Part shown: positions 2,036 to 54,745 of the stretch, piece after piece | Layout: every line of letters starts with the position of its first letter | Position numbering within the stretch: position 1 is the first letter of the stretch | Source: Eledone cirrhosa | Taxonomy: Eukaryota | DNA: 64,000 bases | Reading direction: 5' to 3' | Assembly (NCBI GenBank): GCA_964016885.1 | Contig: OZ024743.1 | Location: 61,318,001-61,382,000, forward strand | Made by a program: the position numbers and the translations under genes | The notes under the pieces: generated by a model | Database searches by the model: none | Seen by the model: only the letters and a program-made list of their open reading frames with translations | What the model was told of the DNA's origin: nothing

Positions 2036-4036
2036 TATTCCTTGAATCTCAGTCATTGATGTTGGTTAACTGGAAAGTCCGTTGGATTGAATATCAAGCC
2101 ACTACCTGCAGCCTCAGATATTCAGGACGTATCGGAGGGTTCTTGCTGTTCCAAGCAAGCATGCCTTTTGAAGCGTTCCAAAAAGCGTGACGGGGCCGAT
2201 TTTCTTAAACCATCCCTGGAAACTTTTGGAGATAGTCCCCAGTGCGCCTATGACAATCGGGATCACTTTGACTTCATGGCAGTTCCAAATCCTTTTCACC
2301 TCCCACTTTAGGTCCTGGTATCGGTTAATTTTCTCCCTCTCCTTCTCTTGCACTCTCGTGTCGAAAGGGCAGGCCACATCAACAATCAGACACGATCTTT
2401 TTTCTTTGTCCACAACCACCAGGTCAGGTCTATTGTGTTCCAGTTTTTTGTCCGTCTGTATCCTAAAATCCCACAGCACCTTCACCTGATTGTTCTCCAT
2501 CACCGCCTCTGGCCTATGCTCATACCATTTCTCAGAGTGTGGTAAATTGTTTACTTTGCACAGGTGCCAGTGGATCACCCTGCCCATCACATCGTGTCTC
2601 CAGCCCTTATAGTGGGTCTGGGCTAGGTGTTTACACTCGGACACAATGTGAGCCACAGTCTCCTCTCTCTCTCCACAGATCCTGCACAGTGGGCTAGCCT
2701 CCTCCTTGTAAATATGGTGCTTCAACCACTTCGTTTTGAGGGCCTGCTCCTGCGCAGCCATTAGCATTCCTTCTGTAGCCTTTTTGAGGTCTCCTCTTCT
2801 CAACCAGTTCCATGTCTGTGGATCTCTAAATTCAGTTTTCTCAAAGAAGGTACTATGAAGGGATTTTCCCTTAAGGCTGCTCTTCCTCCTTGATGTTATT
2901 TCCTCCTTGGACATCCCCTGGCCTACTGTCCCTTCCTTCAGTACAGTTCTGAGCATTGGCTCCTTACTATAGGTCACGTATTTGTATAGGTTGTTTTTCT
3001 CCATCTGAACACAGTCCTCTATGCTGATAAGACCGCTTCCACCCTCAGATCTCCTTAGGTAGAGTCTATCGACATCACTCCTCTTGTGGAACATGTAGAT
3101 AGTCAATAGCTTCCTAGTCTTCCTATCCATTTCTTTTTGTTCAGCAACATTCCATCTCAGAATTCCAGCACTGTACCTAATAATAGACACAGCTCGGGAA
3201 TTTACTGCGCTTATGGCATTTCTGCTGTTCAGATGTGACTTCAATACGCTCCTTACTCTCCGAATGTATTCAGTTCTTAACAATTCCTTCATTTTTTTGT
3301 TCTTTATGCCATCAGCCTCCAGAACGCCCAAATACTTGTATCCTTCCTCAGAGTCAATTTCCTTTATCATCTCACCTGTTGGTATCTGGATCCCGTTACT
3401 TCTGCTCAACCTACCCCTCTTCATCACAATGACTCCACATTTACTAATACCAAACTGCATACATATATCACTGCTGAAAATACGGACAGTGTCAACAAGC
3501 ACATCCAACTCCTTCTCACTTTTCCCGAAGAGCTTAAGATCGTCCATGAAGAGGAGGTGATTGATGGTAAGCTCTCCCTTTCCCAACTTGTATCCTCCTC
3601 TCACTTTTCGCAGCATAATGGTCAAGGGCATCAGGGCAAGGACAAACAACAGAGGGGACAGGCTATCTCCCTGGAAGATACCTCTCTTGATCTTCACGCT
3701 TCCCAAGGATACTCCAGTTGATGTCAACTCTGTCTCCCAGGACCCCATACTCCTGCCCAGCAACTGTCTGATGTTATCTGCCACCTTGAAGATCTCCAGG
3801 CTTTTGGTGATCCAAGAATGAGGCACCATGTCAAATGCCTTTCTGTAGTCTATCCATCCCATGGCAAGATCAGTGTGTCTCCTCCTGCAATTCCCCATTA
3901 CCATCTTATCAATAAGCAACTGGTCCTTTGTACCACGTGACTTCTTTCGGCATCCTTTCTGTTTGTCCGGTAACAAGTTGTTTGTGTGGAGGTGATGGTA
4001 GATTTCCTCAGACACAATGCTCGTCAGCAGTTTCCA
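2036..4036 (-). mobile_element. R4/Dong-like non-LTR retrotransposon (RT + restriction-like endonuclease), 5'-truncated
   Basis: Flanked on both sides by (TAA)n; short 3' UTR; truncated within RT at [11 protein letters not shown]. Confidence 0.88.
2114..4015 (-). CDS. Reverse transcriptase + CCHC zinc knuckle + PD-(D/E)xK restriction-like endonuclease (N-terminally truncated, open 633 aa)
   Basis: [37 protein letters not shown]; [18 protein letters not shown]; RHD; RPDLVVVD...IVDVACPFD...EKINRY. Confidence 0.92.
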
Positions 4037-4266
4037 TTATTATTATTATTATTGAATGCCATGGTTGACGGAGGCTCGGCTCTGTAAGGTATAGTAATTT
4101 TTAACCGTTAAAACAATTGTAAATTGTTTAAAACTTGAACCAAATTGTTGATAAAGACACCCTCCTCCTCGTGAGAGGGGTCTTTCTGTCCGTTATTTGG
4201 CCCTTCGGGGTTAAATAGCCAGTTATTGGGGTTTTGTACCCAAAATTTCATTTTAAACAAAAAAAC

Positions 4267-6363
4267 ATGGCTACCAAAAAGAAATTTCATACGTCACTCC
4301 CACTCATTCCGTCTTCTTCTTCCTCAATCATCACTACAGCAGAGAGAAGATTGTCTCTCTCCCTCCCTTCTTTAAATGTGTCTCTCTCCCTCCCTTCTCT
4401 TTCGCAAGTGACGAAAGAAAAGAAAAGTCTCGTGCAAAGCGTGCAAGGTTTCTCCACGACGACGACGACAGCGACGAAACAGGTGTGCGGGAAATACGAA
4501 AACCCAGTTCATTCGTCTGACGTCAGGAATAATAGCAGTAGCAGCCGTAATAACAACAGCAACAGTGACAATGAAAACAACAGTAGCAGCCGCAACAGCA
4601 TCACCAGCAGCATAAACAACAACAGCATTAGCAGCAGCAACACCAACAACAACCACAGCAACAGCGGCGGAGGCAGTAGTCGTAGTACCTGCAGCAACAA
4701 CAAAAGTACCAGCAGCTCTGACGACAACAACAACAGCAGAGAAAAACCAATCTCATTTGCAGGCATTGCGAAAAATTTGGAAACAATCCTCATAACAAAT
4801 GAGGAATTAGAGGAAGCGAAGAAGATGGTGACAAAGAACGGACACCGAGCAATCTGCAAGGCAGCGAAAAATTTTTTCGAAACCCAAGAGCACTGTACGG
4901 TCACGTACCGTACAGTAAGTACAAAATCCCGTAGGGTGGAAAGAGCCACAGAGGCCCAAATACAAAAAGCCTTGGGGTCTGTGTGGCAGCGGAAAACGCA
5001 CATCACCCGAGGCAAAAAATATGCCACCGTAGACGTACTTTTTGCCACACCCCAGGAGGCAAAGGCCCAATCAGTAGTGACCCTAAGGAGCGAGGAAATG
5101 GTGTTGGTGCCCTCCTACTGTGGGCAAAAAATTGTGAGGGTCAAACTGACCCACGTCCCCCCCGGAATGACCCCTTCTTGGCTGGCCGCGTCTGTCCTCG
5201 TCGGAATCGAGGACAAAACAACTGTACTGCAAGTACAGAAAAAAGTAAGAGAAGATTGGGTCGGCTCCTCCATTGAGATGCTAATCCAAACCAACCAGGA
5301 GTGCATCGAAGCTATCCCGGATGTGATAGACTTCGATAACGGCACTCAACTGCCCATAAGTGTTGAGGGCAAACGCCCGAAATGCTTTCGCTGTGGATCG
5401 AAGACTCACCTCAGGGCCTTCTGCAACGAGAAGACCCTGAGAAAGGAGAAAACCCCCCTCCTTCCGAATCCGGCTCCACGGCTACCAGCAACAGGACAAG
5501 CGGCAACCAGGAACGATAGGCCCGTGGCACCCATACCCACTCCACGGAAATCAAAAACAGCAGCAGCAGTGGAAATACTAACAACAACAACAGCAATACC
5601 AAATGCAGCTGCAACAGAGACTCCAGTGCAAACATCACCAACAACAACAAGTGAAAGAGTGGAGTTGGTACCCCTCCCCGACCTCACAGAATCAGACATG
5701 GAGTGTGAGGTGGGAGAGAGATGGCAAAAGGTCGTAAGAAGGCACAAACGCAGAAGCAGCGCATCGTCGCCTTTGAAAAGTGAGGAAAGAAATGAGAAAA
5801 GGGTAAAGTCTACTGCAAAGAGACCCACAGCAGCAACAACACCAACACCATCACCACCCACACTAGCGCCACCATCACCACCGGCGACAACCCCACCGCC
5901 AACAACACCTTCAACACCACCACCACAAGCACCAACATCGCAAACACAACAACAAAACACACACACCCAGCAACAACGACAAGAAAATAGCAGAACCACA
6001 CCCCACCCCCAGAAAAACAAATGCACGGCAATAAATACACACAACAAGAAACTAATGACTTACATAATTGAACACACAGACATTTCACAACAGGACTACA
6101 TAATACCAGCACCAATCAAAACGCCAACTAACATAAGACTGCTAAAAATAGCACAGAAACAATACACAAACATTAAAACGAAATTCCCCAACGCAGTTGG
6201 TGATTTCAGGGACCTAGGAGGAACCATCAATCGAAGAGTATACTCAGACATTCTCTTAGAAGAGCCGACGACCAGCCGAAGGGACGATTCAACGGTCCCT
6301 TCACCAGACGATCAAGTGAAAAGGGATGTAAAAACCATCCCTCCTCTACCAAAAGTACGGTAA
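4267..6363 (+). CDS. ORF1 gag-like nucleic-acid-binding protein
   Basis: First ATG at 4267 (AAAAACATGG); CX2CX4HX4C knuckle CFRCGSKTHLRAFC; Asn/Ser-rich and Pro/Thr-rich low-complexity tracts; directly upstream of ORF2. Confidence 0.88.
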   Translation: MATKKKFHTSLPLIPSSSSSIITTAERRLSLSLPSLNVSLSLPSLSQVTKEKKSLVQSVQGFSTTTTTATKQVCGKYENPVHSSDVRNNSSSSRNNNSNSDNENNSSSRNSITSSINNNSISSSNTNNNHSNSGGGSSRSTCSNNKSTSSSDDNNNSREKPISFAGIAKNLETILITNEELEEAKKMVTKNGHRAICKAAKNFFETQEHCTVTYRTVSTKSRRVERATEAQIQKALGSVWQRKTHITRGKKYATVDVLFATPQEAKAQSVVTLRSEEMVLVPSYCGQKIVRVKLTHVPPGMTPSWLAASVLVGIEDKTTVLQVQKKVREDWVGSSIEMLIQTNQECIEAIPDVIDFDNGTQLPISVEGKRPKCFRCGSKTHLRAFCNEKTLRKEKTPLLPNPAPRLPATGQAATRNDRPVAPIPTPRKSKTAAAVEILTTTTAIPNAAATETPVQTSPTTTSERVELVPLPDLTESDMECEVGERWQKVVRRHKRRSSASSPLKSEERNEKRVKSTAKRPTAATTPTPSPPTLAPPSPPATTPPPTTPSTPPPQAPTSQTQQQNTHTQQQRQENSRTTPHPQKNKCTAINTHNKKLMTYIIEHTDISQQDYIIPAPIKTPTNIRLLKIAQKQYTNIKTKFPNAVGDFRDLGGTINRRVYSDILLEEPTTSRRDDSTVPSPDDQVKRDVKTIPPLPKVR

Positions 6364-6398
6364 GTGGTCTTTCCCATCTTTTCCACTCTATTTTAAAC

Positions 6399-9300
6399 AT
6401 GACCTCACTCAGAATAGGCAGCATAAATGCGCGTGGCTTGGGGTCGTCATGGAAGCAGGGTCACCTGCTCAACGACCTCAGGTCACTAAACATAGATGTA
6501 GTGGCCATCAGCGAGACCAGAATCTCCGAAGCACGGGCCTTCGCACCGATCTTCGGCGGCTTCGATGTGTACGCATCTCCCAGCCGTCCTGGATCCGGTG
6601 GAGGAGTTGCTGTGCTTTTTCGGAGAGGTTTGGATCTCGCCATACGGGCCATCTTCCTGGACCCAGAGGGTAAGCTGGTGGTGCTGGACGTGACCAGCGG
6701 AGACGGGCAAGCTTTCAGGCTAGTGGCCGTCTATGCCCCGACAGGAGCAGGGCGGCCTGATTTCTTCCGGCGTCTGGAGACCTTTCTTGGAACGTCCCGC
6801 TCTTTAGTGTTAGTGGGCGACTGGAACGGGATCTTAGATGCACGCTGGGACTGTGTGGGATTAGCGGATAGGGGTGGAGGGTGCAAGAGCCTCACCAACC
6901 TGCTCAGGCGTTTTGAACTGTCTGACAGGTACCGATTGGATTTCCCGAATGTGCCAATGTGGACTTGGACAAACCGCATAGGGTCATCCAGATCATATCT
7001 AGATAGAGTATTTTGTAGGGAAATAGATAGGTCTAGCATAGGCTGTCCACAATTCAAGATAGTCAGCTACACGGACCACAAATTCGTGATCTGTGTGCTT
7101 GACTTAGATAGGCTTCATAGACGAGGACCCGGCTACTGGAAGCTAAACGCGTCCTTACCAGCGCGCAAGGCCTACAGAGACCGGATTAGCGAACTAGTTA
7201 AGCGGGCGTTGACGGGGGCCATCGTCAACAACAAGTGGTGGTTTGCTCTGAAAAGAGCGATTAGAATAGAATCGATTAGGTTTAGTAAGGCTTTAGCAAT
7301 AGAGAAAAATAGAGCAGAGGGAGAACTAGTTAGAAAATTAGACGAGGCGCTTAGCAAAGGCATTGCGACCGACGTGCTTGCGGCGAAATTGGCCCTTGAC
7401 CAATTCTTCAATGCAAAGCACGAAGGCTGCGTTGTCAGAGCTAGGGTGCGTGCTCTCAGACACGAGGGGACGAAAGCCGTTCAATGGGCCCGAGTGGCGG
7501 AGGCGCGTCGTGGCAACAAAGCCACGATCCGGTCTTTGGTGGACCACGACGGGCGCATGCTACTCGATCCCGGGCAAATGTGTGAAGCTTTTCAGCGACA
7601 CTTCGCTCAGCTGTTCGGGGGCAGCGGGGGGCCGGGTAGAGGGATGGACTTTAGTGTCTACCTCGACGGACTGCCGCGGCTCTCGGCCACTGAGGCGAAG
7701 TGTTGCGAAAAGCCGATAACAGCCGCTGAAGTACGGGAGGCAATGACTGGCTGCACAAGGGGTAAATCGCCTGGTTTGGATGGTCTGCCCTATGAACTTT
7801 ACGTACAGATGCCAGACTTGTTCGGAGGCCTCTTGGCGGACGTCTACTGCAACTGGCAACAGAACGGGAGAATTCCCAGTTCTGTGAGCCGAGGAGCGGT
7901 GGCACTGCTGAGAAAGGATCCGAACAAGGGGGATAACATAGACAATTTCCGGCCCATAACTCTGCTAAACACAGAGTTTAAGATTTTGGCCAAGGTGCTA
8001 GCAAAGAGGTTGGCGCTTGTCGTTGGTGGTCTGGTGGGAGAGGCGCAGACATGCGCCATTCCCGACAGATCCATCCACGACAACCTCCACCTCATGCGAT
8101 ACATCGTAGAGAGGGTAGCTAGGGAACCTGGCACGGGTGGGTCCTTGATCAATTTAGATCAGTCGAAAGCTTTCGATAGGGTCGACCATCGTTACCTAGC
8201 GGCAGTCCTGAGGGCGGCTGGCTTTGGGCCCGTCTTCAGAGGCTGGATCGCTGCCATGCACAGCGACATCTGCTCTGTGGTGAGAGTGAACGGTCACCTG
8301 TCGGAACCGTTCAACATCATGCGCTCGGTCCGCCAAGGATGTCCCCTCTCGTCCCTCTTGTACGTATTGACTCTCGAGCCATTACTGCACAAACTGGAGA
8401 CGTTGAGGGGAGTCCCGCGCGAACTAGGATGCGGAAGATCCGTGTCAGCATATGCGGACGATGTCACCGTAGTGGTGTCGAACGCCAAACACATCGAGGC
8501 GATCGGCACTACACTAAGAGAATACGAAGCGGTGACAGGAGCAATGATCAACCAGGAAAAGTCAGTGGGCCTGCAGCTCGGCACCTGGAGAGGCAGGTCC
8601 ATGCCGTCCAACAGCGTCGTCGGGCGCTGGACGGACGGACCGGTTAAATTGCTAGGGGTCTGGTTCGGTCCGGACCTCCAGACGGACAAAAACTGGGACG
8701 AGGTGACGAGCAGGGTGGCTTCTCTCACCCAGAAATGGGCGGAGAGGAAGCTATCCCTGAAAGGTCGAGCGGAGGTGGCTAACGCGTACATCGCGTCTGT
8801 CATCTGCTACCGCCTGACCGTCGTACCTTGTCCTAAGCCTCGCCTGACTGCGCTGGAGCGTTTGCTCTTTCGCTTTTTGTGGAAGGGACGTGCTCCGATG
8901 GTCAGGCGGTCCATCTGTTGTCAACACCCGCTACGTGGAGGGCTGGGCATGCCGTGGCTGATGATGCGCAGGCACGCGCTCAGGCTACGACATCTCCACC
9001 TCTTCCTCGACGGTGATCAGGTGTGGTCGCCGTTTGCTAGACGCGTTTTTCCCCAGCTCGTTTCCTTGACGGAGCTGCAGTCCTGGGTCAAGCGAAGACC
9101 GAGAGGGAGCGCCTGGAGACTGGAATGTCTTCAGGCGCTCACAGCCCTCGACCAATCGGGCAATGTGATCGGTGGAAACTCCACCTCGGCGTTCTATAGA
9201 GGATTAGTGGAGGGGAAGAGCGACGACGTACTTGGGGAAACTCTAGGCGTCGACGAAAATCAACTAGCCAATCTCTTCGGAAGAACTTTCGGGCCAGGGC

Positions 9301-9818
9301 CTATGGACAACTTCCAGAAATCTCTGGCCTGGCAGTGCTACCGAGGAGCCTTGCCAGTTCGGGATAAACTCTACAGGCATGGAGGTGCCGTCAGCCGGGC
9401 ATGTCCGAGATGCGCGCAGGGCGACGAAACCGTCCTGCACGCACTCGTCCAGTGTCCGAAAATTGCTGACTTGTGGGTTTATGTCGAACACCTGCTGTCG
9501 CGTTTAGGACGGATCCAGCTATCATCTGAGTCTATCGTGAGGATTGCCCCGCCCTCCTCCTTTAGCCGGGAAGGGCAGGCAGTTTTTATCTGTCTGGTGG
9601 CCATGGCGAAAGAGATAGTATGGTGGACACGTTTGAAAGGGCTGAAGACGAGCACTTACCTCTTCGGTGATGCTCTGATTGACTTTTTCAAATTTCATTT
9701 GAAAAGGAAAATCAGAGTAGAGAAGGAAGTGCTCTCTTCCCAGCATTTTGTTGAAAGATGGGTGAGAGAAGCAAGAATGGCCCGAGTGAATGGGCCGACT
9801 CTGAGTATATATCTGTAA
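6399..9818 (+). CDS. ORF2: APE endonuclease + reverse transcriptase + C-terminal Cys/His motif, 1139 aa, uninterrupted
   Basis: SINARGL, ISET, VYAP, GDWN, YLDRVF, TDH (APE); KSPGLDGLP, FRPITLLN, DQSKAFDRVDH, VRQGCPLS, AYADD (RT); CPRC..ETVLHALVQC. Confidence 0.97.
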   Translation: MTSLRIGSINARGLGSSWKQGHLLNDLRSLNIDVVAISETRISEARAFAPIFGGFDVYASPSRPGSGGGVAVLFRRGLDLAIRAIFLDPEGKLVVLDVTSGDGQAFRLVAVYAPTGAGRPDFFRRLETFLGTSRSLVLVGDWNGILDARWDCVGLADRGGGCKSLTNLLRRFELSDRYRLDFPNVPMWTWTNRIGSSRSYLDRVFCREIDRSSIGCPQFKIVSYTDHKFVICVLDLDRLHRRGPGYWKLNASLPARKAYRDRISELVKRALTGAIVNNKWWFALKRAIRIESIRFSKALAIEKNRAEGELVRKLDEALSKGIATDVLAAKLALDQFFNAKHEGCVVRARVRALRHEGTKAVQWARVAEARRGNKATIRSLVDHDGRMLLDPGQMCEAFQRHFAQLFGGSGGPGRGMDFSVYLDGLPRLSATEAKCCEKPITAAEVREAMTGCTRGKSPGLDGLPYELYVQMPDLFGGLLADVYCNWQQNGRIPSSVSRGAVALLRKDPNKGDNIDNFRPITLLNTEFKILAKVLAKRLALVVGGLVGEAQTCAIPDRSIHDNLHLMRYIVERVAREPGTGGSLINLDQSKAFDRVDHRYLAAVLRAAGFGPVFRGWIAAMHSDICSVVRVNGHLSEPFNIMRSVRQGCPLSSLLYVLTLEPLLHKLETLRGVPRELGCGRSVSAYADDVTVVVSNAKHIEAIGTTLREYEAVTGAMINQEKSVGLQLGTWRGRSMPSNSVVGRWTDGPVKLLGVWFGPDLQTDKNWDEVTSRVASLTQKWAERKLSLKGRAEVANAYIASVICYRLTVVPCPKPRLTALERLLFRFLWKGRAPMVRRSICCQHPLRGGLGMPWLMMRRHALRLRHLHLFLDGDQVWSPFARRVFPQLVSLTELQSWVKRRPRGSAWRLECLQALTALDQSGNVIGGNSTSAFYRGLVEGKSDDVLGETLGVDENQLANLFGRTFGPGPMDNFQKSLAWQCYRGALPVRDKLYRHGGAVSRACPRCAQGDETVLHALVQCPKIADLWVYVEHLLSRLGRIQLSSESIVRIAPPSSFSREGQAVFICLVAMAKEIVWWTRLKGLKTSTYLFGDALIDFFKFHLKRKIRVEKEVLSSQHFVERWVREARMARVNGPTLSIYL

Positions 9819-10078
9819 ACTAAAGGTGGAAAACTGGGAGAGGGCACTTGCCTTGGTGGTCAGGGTCATTGTGGCTTTTTACTGGGCTTTCTCCACAAAT
9901 GTCCCTCCGAAGTCTCCCCCCTATTGGGGAATTTTTCATTGTTATTTTCATTGTTATTTTTGTTACATCCTCTGTTTTTGTTTTTTTACACGCAGAAATG
10001 CCCATTTGTACCGTCCTGCATTGTCCTGCACTGTCCTTAATGTCTACTTTATGTAAACCCTTGTGGTTAATAAAGAAA

Positions 10079-10137
<59 letters not shown>

Positions 10138-14890: not shown

Positions 14891-14931
<41 letters not shown>

Positions 14932-14934
14932 TAT

Positions 14935-15152
14935 TTCGTTTCTGAATTTGTTTAGCAAGATTCTTTATCTGAAATCGTGTGTTGAAACCGATATTGTTAT
15001 ACTTTGGGAGGGTCATGTTGCCAATAAGAAACACACGCACCAGTTGCTTTCACTTCAATTTATTATTATAATAAATTTATTATAATAATAAATTGAAGTG
15101 AAAGCAACTGGTGCGTGTGTTTCTTATTGACAACATGACCCTCCCAAAGTAT

Positions 15153-15160
<8 letters not shown>
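14935..15160. mobile_element. Fold-back remnant of the PLE family at 49765-51900 (terminal ~85-bp arms plus one-sided 56-bp tail), in (TA)n
   Basis: 14991-15160 is a near-perfect palindrome matching 49765-49840 and 51770-51844; 14935-14990 is the reverse complement of 51845-51900. Confidence 0.88.
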
Positions 15161-48967: not shown

Positions 48968-49458
48968 AGTTAATATAAATTAATATATATGATAAAACAC
49001 AAATACCAACATATAAGTGTTTGTACTGTAAATGACTAAGTTAGCTAGAATGAAAAATACTAATTATAATAATACAGTTTGCCTGTCTCGATTTAAAATA
49101 ATAAATCAATAAAAACAAACGATATTGGCAAAAGGGCGTGGTACTTAGACAAATTTAAATTTCAAAATCAAACCTGTTCCGTAGATAAGTTTAAACTTCA
49201 AAATCCAAATAAGTATCGAGATGAAAAAGTGAAAGAATACCCCGTTCAGCTCTCCTCAGTAAGTACCCTGAACAATTGGTATGCTTCACTTCAAAATATT
49301 TAAAAAGACTGTTTAACGCACATGGTTTTCCAGTTTCTAGCTGCCGCATACTCGTTCTGCTAGAAATAACAGCCGTTTATATGGGGCTAAAGTTAGCTCT
49401 ACATTGTAAAGGACCGCTTGAGTTTAGAACTCATTATTCTTAGTATATATATATATAT

Positions 49459-49573
<115 letters not shown>

Positions 49574-49939
49574 CATATATACATATATATAAATATATAT
49601 ATATATGTATATATATATATACATATATATAAATATATATATAATATATATATATACATACATATATATATATATATTATATATATATATATATATACAT
49701 ACATATATATATATATATTATATATATATATATACATACATATATATATATATATATTATATATATATTGTTATACTTTGGGAGGGTCATGTTGCCAATA
49801 AGAAACACACGCACCAGTTGCTTTCACTTCAATTTATTATATATTTACAAATTTATAAATTTACAAATCTACAAACTTATAAATTATAAATTTCTGGTTG
49901 GTTGGTTGGTTCCACAACCAGATAGTTGTTTATATATAT

Positions 49940-49984
49940 AGTCATAGTCCTTTCGTCACACACTCTGTGACCTCTTCAGTGACT
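49940..49984 (-). ncRNA. Minimal type I hammerhead ribozyme (left arm)
   Basis: Reverse complement of 51625-51669. Confidence 0.78.
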
Positions 49985-50239
49985 GGGAATTCCTTTCTTC
50001 GTTTCTGTGCCTTTTCTTTCTTCTATCCTACGCCATTTTGTTTCTGTGTGTGTGTTGTGTGCTCAGTTTGCGCATGTGCCACATCCGGGTGTCTGTGTGT
50101 GTTTGTGTTCATTTTTCTATTTGTTTATTTATTTATTGTTGGTTGGTTGTTTGTTCTATGTGTGTGTGTGTTTTCATTTTGTGTGTGTTTTCAATTGTAA
50201 GTTGTTTGTTCTATGTGTGTGTGTGTTTTCATTTTGTCC

Positions 50240-50772
50240 TTAACTGTAAGTTGTGATGTTGCTGTTCCACTCATATTTTCTATTTAATTTTGGTTTTAAT
50301 TCTTTTATGCTTACTGCCTCTGTAATTTGCCTAAACATTGCGTCTTTTCTGTGCGTGGATTCTATTTTTATTTCTATGCTCTCTAATCTACCCCTGTGTT
50401 CTATCTTAGCATGTTGGTAGAGCACAGATGATTCTTTATTATCTTGGAGGTCTCGCCAGTGTTCATTTATTCGTTCCCCTATACTACGAGCTGTCTCACC
50501 TATGTACACTATATTTTTGTTTCTACATTGTCCTTCAGTACATCTTATGCTATACACTACATTTCTAGTTTTACAGTTAATATGGGGGCTTATTTTACAG
50601 GTTATACATTTCTTATCTATACATGAGGGTCTTTGGAACGGGTATGTCTTGCTAATAAGTGTTTTTACGGAGGTACCAGGTCTTTCTACTATCTTAATAT
50701 TGAGATTATGTTTATTTAGGGCCCTTCTAAATTTGTAGGCTAGTTCACCTCTAGGGGTTGTATTGATGAACA
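50240..50772 (-). pseudogene. GIY-YIG endonuclease domain, 5'-truncated (left arm)
   Basis: CIDKKCITC..CKTRNVVYSIRC..C..VYIGETARSIGERINEH..RQITEAV..LN. Confidence 0.9.
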
Positions 50773-50807
50773 ATGTAATGAACAATGTAATGAACAATGT
50801 AATGAAC

Positions 50808-51347
50808 AATGTAATGTTCATCAATACAACCCCTAGAGGCGAACTAGCCTACAAATTTAGAAGGGCCCTAAATAAACATAATCTCAATATTAAGATAGTA
50901 GAAAGACCTGGTACCTCCGTAAAAACACTTATTAGCAAGACATACCCGTTCCAAAGACCCTCATGTATAGATAAGAAATGTATAACCTGTAAAATAAGCC
51001 CCCATATTAACTGTAAAACTAGAAATGTAGTGTATAGCATAAGATGTACTGAAGGACAATGTAGAAACAAAAATATAGTGTACATAGGTGAGACAGCTCG
51101 TAGTATAGGGGAACGAATAAATGAACACTGGCAAGACCTCCAAGATAATAAAGAATCATCTGTGCTCTACCAACATGCTAAGATAGAACACAGGGGTAGA
51201 TTAGAGAGCATAGAAATAAAAATAGAATCCACGCACAGAAAAGACGCAATGTTTAGGCAAATTACAGAGGCAGTAAGCATAAAAGAATTAAAACCAAAAT
51301 TAAATAGAAAATATGAGTGGAACAGCAACATCACAACTTACAGTTAA
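50808..51347 (+). pseudogene. GIY-YIG endonuclease domain, 5'-truncated (right arm)
   Basis: Same protein as left arm except one residue (HWQD vs HWRD). Confidence 0.9.
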
Positions 51348-51624
51348 GGACAAAATGAAAACACACACACACATAGAACAAACAACTTACAATTGAAAAC
51401 ACACACAAAATGAAAACACACACAGGACAAAATGAAAACACACACACACATAGAACAAACAACCAACCAACAATAAATAAATAAACAAATAGAAAAATGA
51501 ACACAAACACACACAGACACCCGGATGTGGCACATGCGCAAACTGAGCACACAACACACACACAGAAACAAAATGGCGTAGGATAGAAGAAAGAAAAGGC
51601 ACAGAAACGAAGAAAGGAATCCCC

Positions 51625-51669
51625 AGTCACTGAAGAGGTCACAGAGTGTGTGACGAAAGGACTATGACT
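51625..51669 (+). ncRNA. Minimal type I hammerhead ribozyme (right arm)
   Basis: aguca CUGAAGA g gucaca-gagug-ugugac GAAA ggac UA ugacu; 5-bp stem I, 6-bp stem II, vestigial stem III. Confidence 0.78.
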
Positions 51670-51957
51670 ATATATATAAACAACTATCTGGTTGTGGAAC
51701 CAACCAACCAACCAGAAATTTATAATTTATAAGTTTGTAGATTTGTAAATTTATAAATTTGTAAATATATAATAAATTGAAGTGAAAGCAACTGGTGCGT
51801 GTGTTTCTTATTGGCAACATGACCCTCCCAAAGTATAACAATATCGGTTTCAACACACGATTTCAGATAAAGAATCTTGCTAAAAAAATTCAGAAACGAA
51901 TTATATATATATATTATATATATATTATATATATATATATACATACATATATATATA

Positions 51958-52025
<68 letters not shown>

Positions 52026-53657
52026 AGAATGATCGAGTATCGAAAAATCGGCGCACGAGTTCACGATAAACAAAATTCGAAATGAGCGGCAGAGGGCTCA
52101 ATGATTCAGATAAATCAGAGCTATAACTATCGTTAAAATACCGTCACACATAGAACAAGTCTAAAATCAACCGTACGATAAAAAAAATCGATAATAGAAG
52201 ATTCGGGACAATCAGATAAAAAATATCAATAAATCAATAAATCAATAAATCAATAGTTTAAATGAATGTAAAATCATACCCGGACCCACTAGAAAGGTGT
52301 TAAATCTAGCTTCTTGGGTTTCTGTAAATCCTTAGACTATATTCTATCAGCTCACATATAAATATATAAGACTTCTAGAACAAGCGGACTGGATATACTT
52401 CTTCAACGAGCTTCGTCCTAACGGAAAAGAGGCTAACCACAAGCAAAAAACGCACATGGAATTTGGCAAGGGAGATAACCTCTATATCCGCGAAAACTAT
52501 TCGAGGAAATGTGGAAATACACATATCGAATAAAAGTGCTCAATAGACATGTTAAAATAAAACAGGAGCTATTCATCACTCAATAGAATCGACAAAAAAT
52601 GAGCAATAAAATTAACTGGTGGATAGCTATGTCCAGAGCTAAAAATATTAGAATGATCGAGTATCGAAAAATCGGCGCACGAGTTCACGATAAACAAAAT
52701 TCGAAATGAGCGGCAGAGGGCTCAATGATTCAGATAAATCAGAGCTATAACTATCGTTAAAATACCGTCACACATAGAACAAGTCTAAAATCAACCGTAC
52801 GATAAAAAAATCGATAATAGAAGATTCGGGACAATCAGATAAAAAATATCAATAAATCAATAAATCAATAGTTTAAATGAATGTAAAATCATACCCGTAC
52901 CCACTAGAAAGGTGTTAAATCTAGCTTCTTGGGTTTCTGTAAATCCTTAGACTATATTCTATCAGCTCACATATAAATATATAAGACTTCTAGAACAAGC
53001 GGACTGGATATACTTCTTCAACGAGCTTCGTCCTAACGGAAAAGAGGCTAACCACAAGCAAAAAACGCACATGGAATTTGGCAAGGGAGATAACCTCTAT
53101 ATCCGCGAAAACTATTCGAGGAAATGTGGAAATACACATATCGAATAAAAGTGCTCAATAGACATGTTAAAATAAAACAGGAGCTATTCATCACTCAATA
53201 GAATCGACAAAAAATGAGCAATAAAATTAACTGGTGGATAGCTATGTCCAGAGCTAAAAATATTAGAATGATCGAGTATCGAAAAATCGGCGCACGAGTT
53301 CACGATAAACAAAATTCGAAATGAGCGGCAGAGGGCTCAATGATTCAGATAAATCAGAGCTATAACTATCGTTAAAATACCGTCACACATAGAACATGTC
53401 TAAAATCAACCGTACGATAAAAAAATCGATAATAGAAGATTCGGGACAATCAGATAAAAAATATCAATAAATCAATAAATCAATAAATCAATAGTTTAAA
53501 TGAATGTAAAATCATACCCGGACCCACTAGAAAGGTGTTAAATCTAGCTTCTTGGGTTTCTGTAAATCCTTAGACTATATCCTATCAGCTCACATATAAA
53601 TATATAAGACTTCTAGAACAAGCGGACTGGATATACTTCTTCAACGAGCTTCGTCCT
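52026..53657. repeat. Tandem repeat, ~620-bp unit x 2.6, bounded by (TA)n
   Basis: AGAATGATCGAGTATCGAAAAATCGG at 52026, 52650 and 53265; units nearly identical. Confidence 0.95.

Positions 53658-54745
<1,088 letters not shown>

Follow-up and report, generated by a model that had tools for sequence, protein, structure and literature searches.

Tandem 12-mers at the seam of a palindromic Penelope-like insertion in Eledone cirrhosa: a likely scar of repeated, aborted DNA end joining

Insertions of EN+ Penelope-like elements, as described in the available sections of three reports (PMC8557442, PMC3846280, PMC11167929), comprise head-to-head arms, a tail at one end and an AT-rich target, and the elements carry an ORF of reverse transcriptase (RT) and C-terminal GIY-YIG endonuclease with two known RT start sites; the locus analyzed here resembles them in its arms, tail, target and parental ORF. 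The one-sided tail is documented in the accessible parts of PMC8557442 and PMC11167929, and the available text of the latter reports that the Penelope-like protein PAc, for which dimerisation is predicted, cuts and extends both strands in vitro, with two start sites at the boundaries of the tail. Inversions are ascribed in the accessible text of PMC3846280 to self-priming on an antisense template, whereas the counts presented below favor two cDNAs made from one RNA. Reiterated seams are not described for EN+ Penelope-like insertions in the available sections of PMC8557442, PMC3846280 and PMC11167929.

Other systems share parts of this picture. In L1 twin priming, a single RNA serves two priming target ends, and the ends of the resulting cDNAs are joined through microcomplementarity, as we propose here (accessible part of bioRxiv 2024.08.27.596794), but the second L1 primer lands internally and the arms barely overlap, whereas here both cDNAs start near the RNA 3' end and yield a palindrome. 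At R2 snap-back junctions, according to the available portion of PMC11371274, further DNA-templated synthesis is primed from the cDNA ends before these are joined. Neither the L1 nor the R2 RT belongs to the Penelope/telomerase group. Telomerase recopies one dedicated, contiguous RNA template, adding many repeats onto a free end. The array described here is like telomerase products, as generally understood, in its short perfect tandem repeats and in a proposed realignment through a few terminal bases, and unlike them in having a unit without an RNA template that is specific to one seam. DNA polymerase theta (Pol theta), in the accessible sections of the reports cited, produces complex inserts made of multiple overlapping copies, the product of several rounds in which synthesis alternates with dissociation (PMC2943611, PMC2895639), extends cyclically on the opposite end, switching between primer and template as it does so (PMC5068794), and alternates between untemplated, cis and trans extension (PMC4912351). 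Compared with the Pol theta and SD-MMEJ inserts in the available parts of these four sources, which arise at chromosome ends and are often imperfect repeats of 5-8 nt, the ends joined here would be cDNAs of identical sequence, and the insert is a perfect 12-mer present four times.

The locus lies in a 64,000-nt stretch of E. cirrhosa contig OZ024743.1 (the window, to which all positions without a locus or reference label refer), with the following features.

49444..49764, no strand: (TA)n target, left flank (TRF)
49765..50772, minus strand: left arm, a 5'-truncated, untailed Penelope-like copy comprising endonuclease region, 3' UTR and pLTR (reference 3286-4307)
50240..50821, minus strand: mirror endonuclease-only ORF, 193 aa (ORF list)
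50766..50816, no strand: seam array, 4.25 exact 12-mer copies (TRF and sequence), unique in the genome and not in the parent
50766..51347, plus strand: endonuclease-only ORF, 193 aa plus stop, reading MNNV four times and then the native MFIN... (PF01541, E 8.2e-05)
50810..51844, plus strand: right arm, the same region as the left arm in sense orientation, from reference 3281
51624..51669, plus strand: hammerhead-like motif in the pLTR (core seen by eye; one stem folds)
51845..51900, plus strand: tail (about 56 nt) corresponding to early codons of the element ORF and confined to the right arm
51902..52025, no strand: (TA)n target, right flank (TRF)
14931..15160, no strand: second, much shorter head-to-head insertion of the same Penelope-like family, one arm tailed

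The inverted arms, about 1 kb each, encode the GIY-YIG endonuclease (PF01541) and are identical at 1005 of 1030 alignment columns, differing by three substitutions, two of them at CpG, and by one 22-nt UTR repeat unit (51405-51426) that is missing on the left. A target-site duplication of the 49765-51900 insertion was not definable inside the (TA)n repeat. At the second palindrome (14931..15160) the seam is 18 nt long and locally templated (17-mer x2.2). By eye, about three copies of a tandem repeat of about 620 nt lie between TA tracts at about 52030-53660. The core of the hammerhead-like motif, which is mirrored at about 49940-49985, was matched by eye to what we take to be the hammerhead consensus; an Rfam search yielded no hammerhead family match at this motif, and its matches across the centre were miRNA hairpin models under their gathering scores, reflecting the palindrome alone.

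A previous reading of this DNA from its sequence only (hereafter the sequence-only reading) had credited the central repeat with supplying in-frame ATGs that create a 194-aa endonuclease-only ORF. The four in-frame ATGs are indeed present, but the ORF has 193 aa and a stop codon, and the arm's native ATG at 50814 opens a 177-aa endonuclease ORF even without the array. The additional ATGs look incidental. A role for the 193-aa ORF was considered and is unsupported: the arm comes with a native ATG, and any read-through RNA would fold into a hairpin of 1 kb. Nothing in the sequence appears to point to expression of, or selection on, this ORF.

The source of the arms is a young and abundant Penelope-like family, with 2,500 exact matches in the genome for one 26-mer and at least 4,220 for the anchor of another haplotype. 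The tandem copy L031, used as reference, contains a 1270-aa ORF with RT and C-terminal GIY-YIG. Searched in parts, its protein matched RVT_1 (E 0.0055, under the curated cut-off) and GIY-YIG (E 0.0002); the whole 1270-aa protein had no Pfam match at E 0.01, and a PDB sequence search with the RT region returned one weak match, to a bacterial defence RT, and none to telomerase. The full-length ORF (L031 132-3944, minus strand) has a long insert rich in Asn, reminiscent of the N-rich inserts that rotifer Penelope elements carry (accessible part of PMC3846280). The family presents the hallmarks of EN+ Penelope-like elements: a single ORF of RT and C-terminal GIY-YIG, partial tandems or pLTR, an inverted truncated copy and a one-sided tail. 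Within the ORF, a CIDKKCITC linker (CX4CxxC) and the pattern VVY..C....C..VYIG fit the Neptune/Nematis definition, which in the available text of PMC8557442 comprises a CX2-5CxxC linker before the endonuclease and two cysteines within GIY-YIG.

At the seam itself, exact copies of ATGAACAATGTA start at 50766, 50778, 50790 and 50802 and are followed by ATGTTCATC, so that the array reads (ATGAACAATGTA)x4.25 at 50766-50816, all copies being exact; TRF reported a period of 12, 4.2 copies and 100% identity. The fourfold 12-mer described from sequence is thereby confirmed. Its unit combines the antisense arm end ATGAACA, one A and the sense arm start TGTA[ATG], the ATG being common to both arms at the joint, as had been proposed; the antisense match extends through ATGAACA (50772), and the sense arm begins at TGTAATG (50810). 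The single A may be untemplated or may come from a 5-nt slip on the sense AATGT. The chimeric nature of the unit and its antisense half (ATGAACA) therefore stand, but the sense half had been given as the presumed upstream sequence AATGTA in the frame N-V-M-F, and this is not parental, because intact copies have CAGAG before the right-arm start: the parental sequence is CAGAG-TGTAATGTTC (frame S-V-M-F), and CAGAG precedes TGTAATGTTCATC in 138 of 140 occurrences.

The array was born at the seam. In line with the expectation that it would be missing from the full-length parent, neither the reference copy nor any of 131 other family loci contained the unit in any rotation, and the longest piece of the array present in the reference copy is 11 nt, some 640 nt distant. 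Within the 3.0-Gb genome the 12-mer is arrayed at 50766-50816 only; the 15-mer ATGAACAATGTAATG has nine matches there, four in the array and five dispersed singles, against three for its reversed control. An identical 12-mer array was also seen in seven of eight runs compared, in contig sets of other organisms (X1, X4, X5, X14, X2, X10, X17), with unrelated flanks and no cover of the arms. A search of sequence runs for the seam returned contig sets sharing just 0-3 of 10 words, and in run X15 the Penelope-like family occurs at great depth, with none of the pieces listed crossing 50766-50816. Among the runs compared, none is shown spanning the seam, as might be expected if the repeats were sequencing or assembly stutter at a long hairpin, yet the arms differ and only one is tailed, as in 87 of 90 pairs across the family, which argues that the palindrome is biological, and similar seams recur at other loci; stutter is accordingly a scarcely credible source.

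Head-to-head pairs were collected from the listed matches of five pattern searches and from DNA-search loci, and parsed against L031. The resulting 106 seams include the one at 50766-50816, the second palindrome of the window and two complex joints of L113; L001 and L002 (the window itself), L025 and L027 (duplicates of L032 and L033) and one duplicate L066 seam were left out. The sample is biased towards loci with an anchor on both arms and towards the first contigs or first matches of each pattern. Both outer ends were scoreable in 90 pairs, the other 16 having met a tandem copy, a locus edge or a break, and 87 of the 90 combine one tailed with one untailed arm (p about 1e-22). Among these 87, 31 have arms that end at most 20 nt apart, 37 have a longer tailed arm and 19 a longer untailed arm. 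Of 2262 polymorphic calls, 2249 are the same in both arms of a pair, where about 769 disagreements would be expected for random arms. Tail asymmetry and the common arm haplotype thus point to pairs of cDNAs that were primed from opposite target strands and joined end to end through their 3' ends, and we infer that a single RNA templated both.

Snap-back of a single cDNA was rejected as the general origin of the palindromes. The untailed arm is longer in 19 of the 56 asymmetric tailed/untailed pairs, and one cDNA folding back therefore cannot make those pairs. The centre of the array locus, previously read as a fold-back point, is on this family-wide evidence probably not a single-strand fold-back, although this near-symmetric locus, taken alone, might be one. 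The two cDNA ends appear to be coupled, since both arm ends lie at most 20 nt apart at 31 of the 106 seams, where permutation expects 2.6; with the hot spot at reference 4030-4045 removed, near-symmetry persists at 20 of 95. At eleven short palindromes (L076, L079, L081, L082, L085-L087, L089-L091 and L167), ten of them of one haplotype, both arms end near-identically at reference 4028-4045 and the seams are all different, which suggests a short pLTR RNA with both cDNAs running off its 5' end. Arm 5' ends also cluster at reference 3200-3399, the array locus included (33 of 186, against 6 and 7 in the adjoining 100-nt bins); the RT may stop, or the RNA break, within this stretch, the count being subject to some selection bias. 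A target-duplication script flagged 4 of 69 pairs as non-simple, and the head-to-head units at L060, L078 and L083, which lie outside (TA)n, are flanked by apparently real duplications of 10-13 nt.

The 106 seams comprise 44 with microhomology of 1-6 nt (a raw count), 14 blunt joints, 25 inserts of 1-7 nt and 23 inserts of at least 8 nt. A new exact tandem, defined as a unit of 7-45 nt in at least two copies, absent from the reference and overlapping the seam, was found at 11 of 106 seams, whereas simulations with the same ends and random inserts gave a mean of 1.1 and a maximum of 2. Inside the arms such tandems occur at 2 of 187 sites (Fisher p 0.0004 for seam against arm; p 0.0009 without the 50766-50816 locus), and reiteration at other junctions, on which the sequence-only reading depended, was thus detected by this strict test at 10 of the other 105 seams. 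A local template of at least 8 nt was identified for 18 of the 23 long inserts, where shuffling expects 3.2. Each reiterated seam carries its own distinct unit. Units bridging both arms are also duplicated at L112 (19-mer x2.2) and L182 (54-mer x2.0), TRF adds near-perfect tandem seams such as L182 and L081 (12-mer x2.1), and three progressively shorter re-copies make up the L172 seam; snap-back inserts are present at L032, L088 and L098, and direct duplications of one arm's end at L051, L077 and L172. More than 2.5 exact copies are found solely at 50766-50816, the other ten exact-tandem seams ending at 2.0-2.4 copies. Seam reiteration is therefore a regular minority feature of these insertions, and 50766-50816 is its extreme case. 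As a control, copies of a young LINE with AP-type endonuclease and RT that begins in (ATT)n (window 4036-10110; several of its loci are tandem arrays) were truncated within range at 2 of 30 loci, too few seams for comparison, and all 20 copies fetched reach the full-length 5' end in ATT repeats.

The model put forward by the sequence-only reading had a telomerase-related RT realigning on a short RNA template and adding repeats. Penelope and telomerase RTs are sister groups (accessible text of PMC8557442), and slippage of the RT on RNA could account for the single-arm duplications seen at other seams. The unit at 50766-50816, however, is half sense and half antisense and has no contiguous element template, so that repeat addition from RNA would have to alternate between RNA and DNA templates, starting and stopping at identical points in all four rounds; moreover, no contiguous template with more than one unit exists in the reference copy or the 131 loci, and no fixed repeat is found at many ends. 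We consider this model very improbable, and for this seam it is largely refuted. Of the reiterative synthesis that it invoked, re-copying at the seam survives and telomerase-style RNA templating does not. Because the sense/antisense unit has no contiguous element template, perfect re-copying needs a DNA template spanning the seam, and the newly formed seam DNA likely served as that template. The array is thus likely the scar of repeated, aborted DNA end joining and not of telomerase-like RNA copying.

With about even confidence, we propose that the 12-mers arose at insertion, when two Penelope-like cDNAs were joined by repeated DNA-templated priming, probably through host end joining of the Pol theta type. 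Both strands of the cut TA repeat would prime the RT, at the tail site and about 60 nt upstream, and both cDNAs would halt at most 5 nt apart. One 3' end would then prime on the other cDNA via 1-3 nt and give the first unit, either with one untemplated A or through a fully templated 5-nt slip on AATGT, with the same outcome. Once both ends carried the unit, their tips may have melted and re-annealed via ATG/CAT, further rounds adding units; with the top strand ending in ATG and the bottom in CAT, two tip-to-tip rounds would take the array from 1 to 2 to 4 units, and fill-in and ligation would fix the palindrome. The composition of the unit, its absence from the parent, the tail asymmetry, the common arm haplotype and the seam statistics are observed directly; the steps and the enzyme are proposals. 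The seam scars match Pol theta end joining, with microhomology of 1-6 nt (44/106), local cis or trans templates and multiple rounds (18/23 inserts; L172, L112, L182), and the genome carries a POLQ-type gene with POLQ_helical exons upstream of DNA_pol_A exons on one strand (G000:C23:21159745-21181658, minus strand). Against host Pol theta, the sequence names no enzyme, the single-arm end duplications at L051, L077 and L172 equally fit an RT slipping on RNA, and group II intron-type RTs perform both snap-back synthesis and microhomology joining (available part of bioRxiv 2022.03.14.484287).

The same activities, shown by related RTs in the accessible part of that preprint, would allow the RT of the element, perhaps acting as a dimer that grips both cDNA ends, to carry out the repeated DNA-templated re-priming and the joining, a reading that we regard as possible but tentative. 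The RT already sits at both 3' ends, PAc extends both strands and is a predicted dimer (accessible text of PMC11167929), and the ends are coupled (31/106 seams against 2.6 by permutation). At L057 (1383-1416), a seam T19 run adjoins a short A tract, with error-rich re-copies, a pattern of homopolymer stutter. Such stutter is frequent with RTs. The spectrum of the seams, on the other hand, fits published Pol theta scars, truncated 5' junctions of R2 insertions can involve host Pol theta (available part of the review PMC13586686), and no joining activity of a Penelope RT is shown in the accessible sections of PMC11167929.

The number of copies bears on timing. As the sole seam with more than 2.5 exact copies among 106, the locus may owe part of its array to later slippage, and the same 12-mer array in unrelated contexts elsewhere indicates that it is able both to arise and to expand elsewhere. 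If one or two units were laid down at insertion, replication slippage in the hairpin loop could have expanded them to four. The locus is slightly aged, with three substitutions and the loss of a 22-nt repeat between its arms, the ten other exact tandems all stop at 2.0-2.4 copies, and the 12-mer is arrayed in other organisms. All four copies are nevertheless perfect, new tandems are rare inside arms (2/187) and enriched at seams, and the three rounds with shrinking ends at L172 are unlike whole-unit slippage; we judge expansion after insertion to be improbable.

Together, these results identify the array as an ordinary kind of scar in an unusually repetitive example, and the single locus matters little, multi-round templated inserts being known repair scars. 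A full-text literature search combining Penelope-like elements, polymerase theta and junction, in a collection with few subscription papers, gave no match, and no title or abstract opening among the papers listed describes reiterated Penelope seams. The 106 natural seams constrain how Penelope insertions finish, a step still unvalidated according to the available text of PMC11167929, with the array as their extreme case, and they provide exact substrates for deciding whether host Pol theta or the telomerase-related RT joins the cDNAs. It is conceivable, though in our estimate unlikely, that a dimer of Penelope RT, working from both sides of the cut, copies one RNA into two cDNAs and then stitches these itself through repeated rounds of realignment and extension on DNA. 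If so, this would supply the missing joining step of Penelope transposition, and the seam would record a primitive realignment activity in the sister enzymes of telomerase.
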